Shown piece after piece: positions 61,503-61,763 of a stretch of 64,000 nucleotides of DNA. Made by a program: the position numbers and the translations under genes. The number at the start of each line of letters is the position of its first letter. Positions within the stretch are counted from its first letter, which is position 1. Under the pieces are notes generated by a model, which ran no database searches, was not told the origin of the DNA, and was given only the letters and a program-made list of their open reading frames with translations. The stretch comes from Escherichia coli (lineage in GTDB: Bacteria > Pseudomonadota > Gammaproteobacteria > Enterobacterales > Enterobacteriaceae): assembly GCF_003334385.1 (NCBI RefSeq), contig NZ_QOWN01000003.1, one strand, 5' to 3'.

Positions 61503-61763
61503 TCAGTTGATTGATATGCGGCGCATTTTTCGAAGGCTGGCAATATGCTTTTCCTTCTCAATTTCTGCTTTAATCATATGTAGTTCGTTGTGATCGATTC
61601 GCTCAAATTCTGCATTAAATGAGTTAATTGATGCGGCTCTGGTTCTCCCATCCAGCCTTCGGAAGATCACCTGTGTCAGCGTTACCTTGCAGACTTGAAC
61701 CGGATAGTTGTTGGCGTCGACGAAGGACTGCCCGCGCTGGATCAGAACGAACACAGGTAGCAT
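61503..61763 (-). CDS. Hypothetical phage protein (86 aa) between xis and exo
   Basis: ORF MLPVFVLIQRGQSFVDANNYPVQVCKVTLTQVIFRRLDGR... in the position of lambda ea/orf60a-type accessory genes; no family recognised. Confidence 0.4.
   Translation of the reverse strand: MLPVFVLIQRGQSFVDANNYPVQVCKVTLTQVIFRRLDGRTRAASINSFNAEFERIDHNELHMIKAEIEKEKHIASLRKMRRISIN

Follow-up and report, generated by a model that had tools for sequence, protein, structure and literature searches.

A DUF4222-family gene and a terminator-like hairpin between exo and xis in a Shiga toxin phage-like prophage of Escherichia coli

The right end of a 64,000-nucleotide (nt) stretch of Escherichia coli DNA (contig NZ_QOWN01000003.1; the whole stretch is hereafter the window) is the left arm of a lambdoid prophage that resembles Shiga toxin (Stx) phages and is inserted in the host gene ynfG. 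Read leftward along the minus strand, this arm carries a RecE-family exonuclease gene, gam, bet, exo, a small open reading frame (ORF), a hairpin, xis, a tyrosine integrase gene, and a truncated ynfG. The small ORF and the hairpin are the subject of this analysis. A preliminary description of the DNA had placed an 86-residue ORF at 61503..61763 between xis and exo and taken it for one of the accessory genes that vary among lambdoid phages in the exo-xis region. Both statements hold: the ORF listing gives a longest frame of 86 residues over this interval on the minus strand, opening with an ATG at 61763, profiles assign the exo and xis genes on its flanks, and the accessory-gene assignment is supported. 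The same description called the ORF an orphan in which no motif could be recognised, and on both counts profile searches lead elsewhere.

The frame encodes a member of the DUF4222 family. It matches the Pfam model (PF13973) with an E value of 1.4e-15 over model positions 2–53 of 53, corresponding to residues 7–57 of the 86-residue ORF, and PHROG 285 with an E value of 5.3e-33 over profile positions 1–81 of 83. RefSeq names 61503..61754 "DUF4222 domain-containing protein" (WP_016238041.1) in a genome that is identical across the 371-bp query 61440..61810, and the family is represented in many phages of the Stx, Shigella, and lambda-like kinds. No match to the ORF came from NCBIfam or PADLOC. 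The true start is likely the GTG at 61754 and not the ATG at 61763. Three lines of sequence evidence point to this codon. First, the N-termini of the homologues coincide, without exception, with its residue. Second, the GTG and an AGGAA core upstream of it are invariant in seven aligned phages, while the ATG of the 86-residue frame is ATA in four of the seven. Third, the RefSeq coding sequence begins there. In some records the ORF occupies the place expected of xis, and it was considered as the excisionase itself; this was rejected because a separate helix-turn-helix (HTH) excisionase gene follows it in the window and in the annotated contexts that name one.

Comparison of the window gene with its orthologues in POCJ13, phiSTEC1589, TL-2011c, and AU6Stx1 yields ratios of nonsynonymous to synonymous substitution (dN/dS) of 0.07–0.14 at dS values of 0.2–0.5, and the reading frame is therefore under purifying selection. 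A lack of conservation in related prophages had been named in advance as the outcome that would speak against a real gene; the gene is kept in these prophages, with a dN/dS of about 0.1. We leave next to no probability to a chance open frame or a decaying pseudogene, a reading suggested by the short length of the ORF and the existence of frameshifted copies and already refuted by the dN/dS ratios, the strong profile matches, a confidently predicted fold, and a conserved start with a Shine-Dalgarno sequence.

The DNA of the hairpin and ORF together is found in 93 phage records by blastn, protein homologues are found in 173 phage records by tblastn, and 221 of 5426 complete E. coli genomes contain the DNA module. 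The orthologues in phi24B (vb_24B_1c, ADN68390.1), POCJ13, 75/02 Stx, TL-2011c, and AU6Stx1 are 83 residues long and 87–88% identical to the window protein; like the window gene, they lie directly before xis and end in the same hairpin. Their flanks differ from those of the window gene, whose immediate upstream neighbour is exo and whose xis-int pair belongs to the ynfG type. No literature on vb_24B_1c of phi24B was found, and no function has been published for the phage orthologues listed here. The 1842-residue repeat protein P0034 appeared as a candidate homologue and was dismissed as a low-complexity false match, and the contigs looked up for two distant homologues proved to be short. In E. 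coli 2018-166 (NZ_CP075632.1, 1481737..1481780), an unannotated 44-nt remnant, 95.5% identical, corresponds to the hairpin and the last DUF4222 codons. The 3' third of the ORF (61503..61590) has 8 variable DNA columns of 84, versus 30 of 168 elsewhere, in a comparison of just seven phage sequences; past recombination or a constraint on the RNA, such as a 3'-derived small RNA, may account for this low variation.

A GC-rich hairpin followed by five U residues had been placed between the ORF and xis at 61481..61500. The stem and the U-tract are both present, and the interval given for them is 1 nt short at its 5' end. The stem pairs AACCGCC (61495–61501) with GGCGGUU (61484–61490) around a UUCG loop, giving 7 bp of which five are G-C pairs. 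The five U residues lie at 61485..61481, two of them being counted in the stem too, and UUUUUAAU stands directly 3' of the five G-C pairs. Folded alone, the hairpin has a free energy of -11.9 kcal/mol (z score -4.2), and none of 200 dinucleotide shuffles is as stable. The stem begins 2 nt past the TGA stop codon, separated from it by one spacer base (61502), in a 34-nt intergenic gap and on the minus strand, the strand of the operon, and the end of the U-tract is 12 nt from the ATG of xis (61468). The hairpin passes a strict rule that requires a perfect 5-bp GC stem plus a U-tract; applied to both strands of the window, this rule finds three sites, against 1.3 expected from Markov simulations. 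The other two sites are on the plus strand at 25003 and 36368, and the latter, CCGCCC-TTCG-GGGCGG then T7, resembles the prophage hairpin. An Rfam search of 60000–64000, with E values up to 1, returned no match.

The hairpin is identical in the seven aligned phages, and homology among them ends 1–2 nt after the U-tract, before four different downstream sequences. Across 52 complete IMG/VR copies the stem shows a single change, a C-to-U that leaves a G.U pair, and is otherwise invariant. Where the xis start is readable, in three xis types, its codon lies 12–40 nt beyond the hairpin. As judged from these alignments, the hairpin is part of this clade's DUF4222 module and lies at the mosaic edge of that module. 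It travels with the DUF4222 gene and not with the particular int gene found here, and phage SfI, which has the same xis family, is without it.

Terminators have been predicted in this region before. Bloch et al. 2014 (PMC4195576) used RNAmotif to predict terminator t3 of phi24B, at -12.7 kcal/mol, and a similar t5 in lambda. The window hairpin and the computationally predicted t3 (ACCGCC-TTCG-GGCGG) are one and the same element at orthologous sites, and the window, with its U5, has a better U-tract than the UUUAUUA of phi24B. Lambda t5 (GCCGCC-TGAT-GGCGG-T6), likewise a prediction, could be located in the lambda genome, where it spans the orf55 stop codon, 28 nt ahead of the xis ATG. Since orf55 is the last gene of the lambda exo-xis region, its layout of orf55, hairpin, and xis parallels that of the window. 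The orf55 and DUF4222 proteins are unrelated, with an hhalign probability of 0.1% in the sole direct comparison made with a lambda exo-xis gene; the others (orf60a, orf63, orf61, orf73, ea22, and ea8.5) belong to other Pfam families, and lambda (NC_001416) is absent among the 40 matches listed of the 173 tblastn phage records. The HK639 record annotates a terminator of its own, AAACCCGC-TCTG-GCGGGTTTTTT (3310..3335), which abuts the start of the gene preceding int and is a further example of a terminator just ahead of the int-proximal gene.

The DUF4222 protein is basic, with an isoelectric point (pI) of 10.0. An AlphaFold2 model built from an 18-sequence alignment has a mean predicted local distance difference test score of 90 and consists of five short strands that form an SH3/Tudor-like small barrel (residues ~10–53), followed by a long conserved C-terminal helix (residues 55–82). 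Residues kept across the lambdoid clade include F2, D13, F46, F50, and E51 of the barrel and a stripe of E57, I61, E66, H70, L74, and R75 along the helix. Foldseek against AFDB50 places DUF4222 proteins on top, followed by barrel domains of Mu-type transposases and MscS. A fold search of BFVD retrieved unnamed phage proteins, and a PDB sequence search with the family profile gave chance-level matches, with E values of at least 0.38.

The only characterised DUF4222 member is RgdR (ECs1581), a 99-residue protein of the cryptic prophage CP-933C of enterohaemorrhagic E. coli (EHEC) O157:H7; related genes are carried by phage-inducible islands of E. coli. RgdR is an activator of the LEE1 promoter and a repressor of motility that binds DNA non-specifically, and residue R20 of its RGD motif matters for activity. 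It matches the same Pfam model, PF13973, with an E value of 2.7e-23. In an hhalign comparison, the profile of the lambdoid clade matches RgdR with an E value of 3.8e-5 and a probability of 71%, over 47 columns of the barrel only, and alignments of the window protein with RgdR show about 16–19% identity. Both proteins are small and basic (pI about 10), contain the DUF4222 barrel domain, and have the Arg-Gly of the RGD motif. RgdR differs in having an N-terminal extension and another C-terminus, whereas the window protein, at 83 residues, has no such extension; and the RgdR gene lies beside a primase gene in a P4-like island, in contrast to the position between exo and xis of a lambdoid prophage that the window gene occupies. 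By sequence comparison, then, the window protein is a member of DUF4222 and a very distant relative of RgdR, not its orthologue.

The position of the gene recurs. In the window and in all 11 phage contexts compared (POCJ13, phiSTEC1589, TL-2011c, AU6Stx1/phi24B, phage 21, 4A7, SfI, phiP27, JLK-2012, HK639, and Klebsiella RAH1), the DUF4222 gene is the last or next-to-last before xis-int, and the integrases and excisionases across these contexts are of several unrelated types. This position could reflect a link to recombination, or equally the ordinary linkage of genes in a mosaic genome. If the former, the DUF4222 protein would be an accessory of site-specific recombination, acting for example on Int/Xis directionality or on the architecture of the att site, a role that would also accord with the likeness of its SH3-like barrel to the barrels of Mu-type transposases and DDE integrases and with the non-specific DNA binding of RgdR. 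We consider this unlikely. The RgdR gene immediately precedes the island primase gene, ~2.2 kb downstream of int, and its product acts on host promoters; one group of Stx2a phages carries frameshifted alleles; a fixed position is common among the accessory genes of mosaic lambdoid genomes, and the fold matches are generic. The phage 21 record (M61865.1) contains an unannotated DUF4222 homologue at 350..586, upstream of xis. An 'icd pseudogene' feature in that record (537..700, minus strand) overlaps the 3' end of this homologue; its placement looks odd, since in phage 4A7 the icd fragment is downstream of int.

We favour, with a moderate degree of confidence, a reading in which the ORF is a real accessory gene within the leftward early operon, its product may modulate transcription, and a Rho-independent terminator, gated by antitermination, stands between it and xis. 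The DUF4222 gene would be the last gene of this operon before xis-int, probably without a promoter of its own: a promoter scan of the minus strand from exo to xis found no sigma-70-like site, the DUF4222 start overlaps the preceding gene in other phages, and in POCJ13, which is 94% identical, all genes from the N-like antiterminator to int are on one strand. In phi24B, xis is under pL/CI control (Fogg et al.). By analogy with lambda, the DUF4222 gene would be made from pL after induction or infection. The hairpin, carried by the same mobile module, would act as a Rho-independent terminator and stop unmodified RNA polymerase; polymerase modified by the N-like antiterminator of the phage would read through it into xis.

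In the lambda pL operon, terminators upstream of xis-int are read through by N antitermination. If the analogy holds, xis would be transcribed only in the antiterminated, derepressed state. The window resembles lambda in having a leftward early operon with a putative terminator before xis-int, and a close relative, POCJ13, has an N-like gene; it differs in that N, nutL, and pL lie beyond the window and an IS421 element interrupts the operon. Gating of xis by the hairpin is a plausible and reasonable idea, since no promoter was found between the hairpin and xis and an N-like gene lies upstream in the 94%-identical phage.

As for the protein, we suggest with low certainty that it is a small transcription modulator associated with DNA, RNA, or RNA polymerase, a suggestion based on the remote homology to RgdR, the basic charge, and the modelled fold. 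With similarly low certainty, an enzyme or a structural protein seems unlikely. A more specific idea, that the DUF4222 barrel is a Tudor-like module that docks on RNA polymerase (compare the C-terminus of UvrD/PcrA, and CarD/Mfd) and that the pre-xis proteins and RgdR form one family that retunes transcription, is a long shot. Were it true, the fixed terminator-xis position could reflect control of read-through into xis-int.

Several observations weigh against the favoured reading. The built-in terminator scan of the window did not list the hairpin; in our reading, it was missed since the longest stem absorbs two U residues and leaves four T in the 8-nt tail. Covariation was sought in the 52 IMG/VR copies, and their near-invariant stem gives no covariation evidence either way. 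The distant DUF4222 genes of phage 21, SfI, HK639, and phiP27 are followed by no equivalent hairpin. In SfI the DUF4222 gene overlaps the start of xis, and because the same xis family occurs there without the hairpin, a terminator is not required for this xis type. The relation to RgdR rests on profiles, since BLASTP of the window protein against RgdR finds no similarity; the window has R-G-Q beneath the R-G-D of RgdR, so that the Arg and Gly are kept and the Asp is replaced by Gln, and the C-terminal halves of the two proteins are unrelated. The matches of the small-barrel fold are generic, being the usual SH3-like cross-matches, and assign no function. The gene is also dispensable: records of the Stx2a_JNE122398 group of Stx2a phages have lost 11 nt of it by deletion and phi191 has 1 nt inserted, either of which shifts the frame; the hairpin is intact in both lineages. 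Finally, in this genome the early-left operon is broken by the IS421 element at a point ~2.2 kb upstream of this gene, and the strain may be impaired in expressing its entire left arm, the DUF4222 gene included.

Some of these observations fit a hairpin that has no gating role and is a weak terminator or a stabiliser of the mRNA 3' end, retained because it sits at a junction where modules recombine. The exact break of inter-phage homology after the U-tract agrees with such a junction, as do the absence of the hairpin from other DUF4222 clades and from SfI, its omission by the built-in scan, and the phi24B version, which has three U only before an A. The placement of the xis start shortly beyond the hairpin in each of the readable xis types and the same arrangement found independently in lambda speak against this view; moreover, functional intrinsic terminators typically have such a stem, UUCG loop, and U5, and the stem is unchanged even where the ORF is frameshifted. 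We regard the absence of gating as doubtful, though it is an alternative to be taken seriously.

The link to RgdR raises another alternative, that of a lysogenic-conversion ('moron') gene, active while the prophage is repressed, which would reprogram virulence or motility genes of the host in the manner of RgdR. The morons of lambdoid phages described by Hendrix and colleagues are promoter-gene-terminator cassettes. The DUF4222 gene resembles them as a small accessory gene with its own terminator at a mosaic boundary, it shares a Pfam family with an activator of LEE1 and repressor of motility, and its module is found mainly in Stx phages and Stx-producing E. coli genomes. Unlike a moron, it has no promoter-like site detected upstream, and it lies within the early-left operon and is probably transcribed together with it, as the overlap of its start with the preceding gene in other phages would fit; its relation to RgdR is also very remote. 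We judge a moron to be very unlikely.

The DUF4222 gene and its neighbours are listed in Table 1. The insertion in ynfG is evident because the N-terminus of ynfG is missing and the integrase gene ends 38 nt away. The xis ORF shares 145 nt with the start of int, and its product is 72% identical over 116 residues to the annotated Xis of phage SfI. Of this intact ORF, RefSeq annotates just 61403..61468 (66 nt), calling it a partial HTH pseudogene; in the record of POCJ13 the xis ORF has no annotation. Among sequenced phages, PhiR5_2 is nearest (98% over 611 bp), followed by two Shigella Stx phages, POCJ13 and 75/02 Stx (94%). The match of the window to related prophages ends at 63925, within the gene for the RecE-family exonuclease, and the final 76 nt (63925..64000) are the end of a multi-copy element of the IS421/IS186 type found in 2173 of 5426 E. 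coli genomes as well as on many plasmids; the copy on plasmid pEGY1-MCR-1 adjoins an IS4-like IS421-family transposase gene.

Table 1. Features of the left arm of the prophage, with window coordinates.
Feature	Coordinates	Strand	Description	Evidence
gam	63270..63566	-		Leftward operon
bet	62479..63264	-		Leftward operon
exo	61802..62482	-	Lambda-type exonuclease, directly upstream of DUF4222 gene	phrog_149, E 2.9e-66; RefSeq annotation
Shine-Dalgarno-like AAGGA	61764..61768	-	9 nt from GTG 61754; abuts ATG of the 86-residue frame	Read from sequence
DUF4222-family gene	61503..61754	-	83 residues from GTG 61754; TGA stop 61505..61503	PF13973; phrog_285; RefSeq coding sequence WP_016238041.1
Intrinsic-terminator-like hairpin	61481..61501	-	U-tract UUUUU, then AAU	Folding; conservation; phi24B t3 prediction
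xis	61097..61468	-	Excisionase-family HTH; intact ORF of 123 residues	phrog_2907, E 1.1e-32; TIGR01764 above cut-off
Tyrosine integrase gene	60078..61241	-	RefSeq name intD, site-specific integrase; beside truncated ynfG	phrog_10426; phrog_1
ynfG	59486..60040	-	Dimethyl sulfoxide reductase-like iron-sulfur subunit, without N-terminus	Host gene

The DUF4222 gene is already catalogued, the hairpin was already predicted in the orthologous phage phi24B in 2014 and has a counterpart in lambda, and nothing at the locus departs from the known organisation of lambdoid genomes. DUF4222 genes sit beside xis-int in many Stx-converting phages, and in EHEC the one relative that has been studied, RgdR, governs motility and type III secretion. 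What value remains is practical: it concerns a possible effect of this clade on host gene expression or on the stability of the prophage, and a possible restraint of untimely Xis expression by the terminator.
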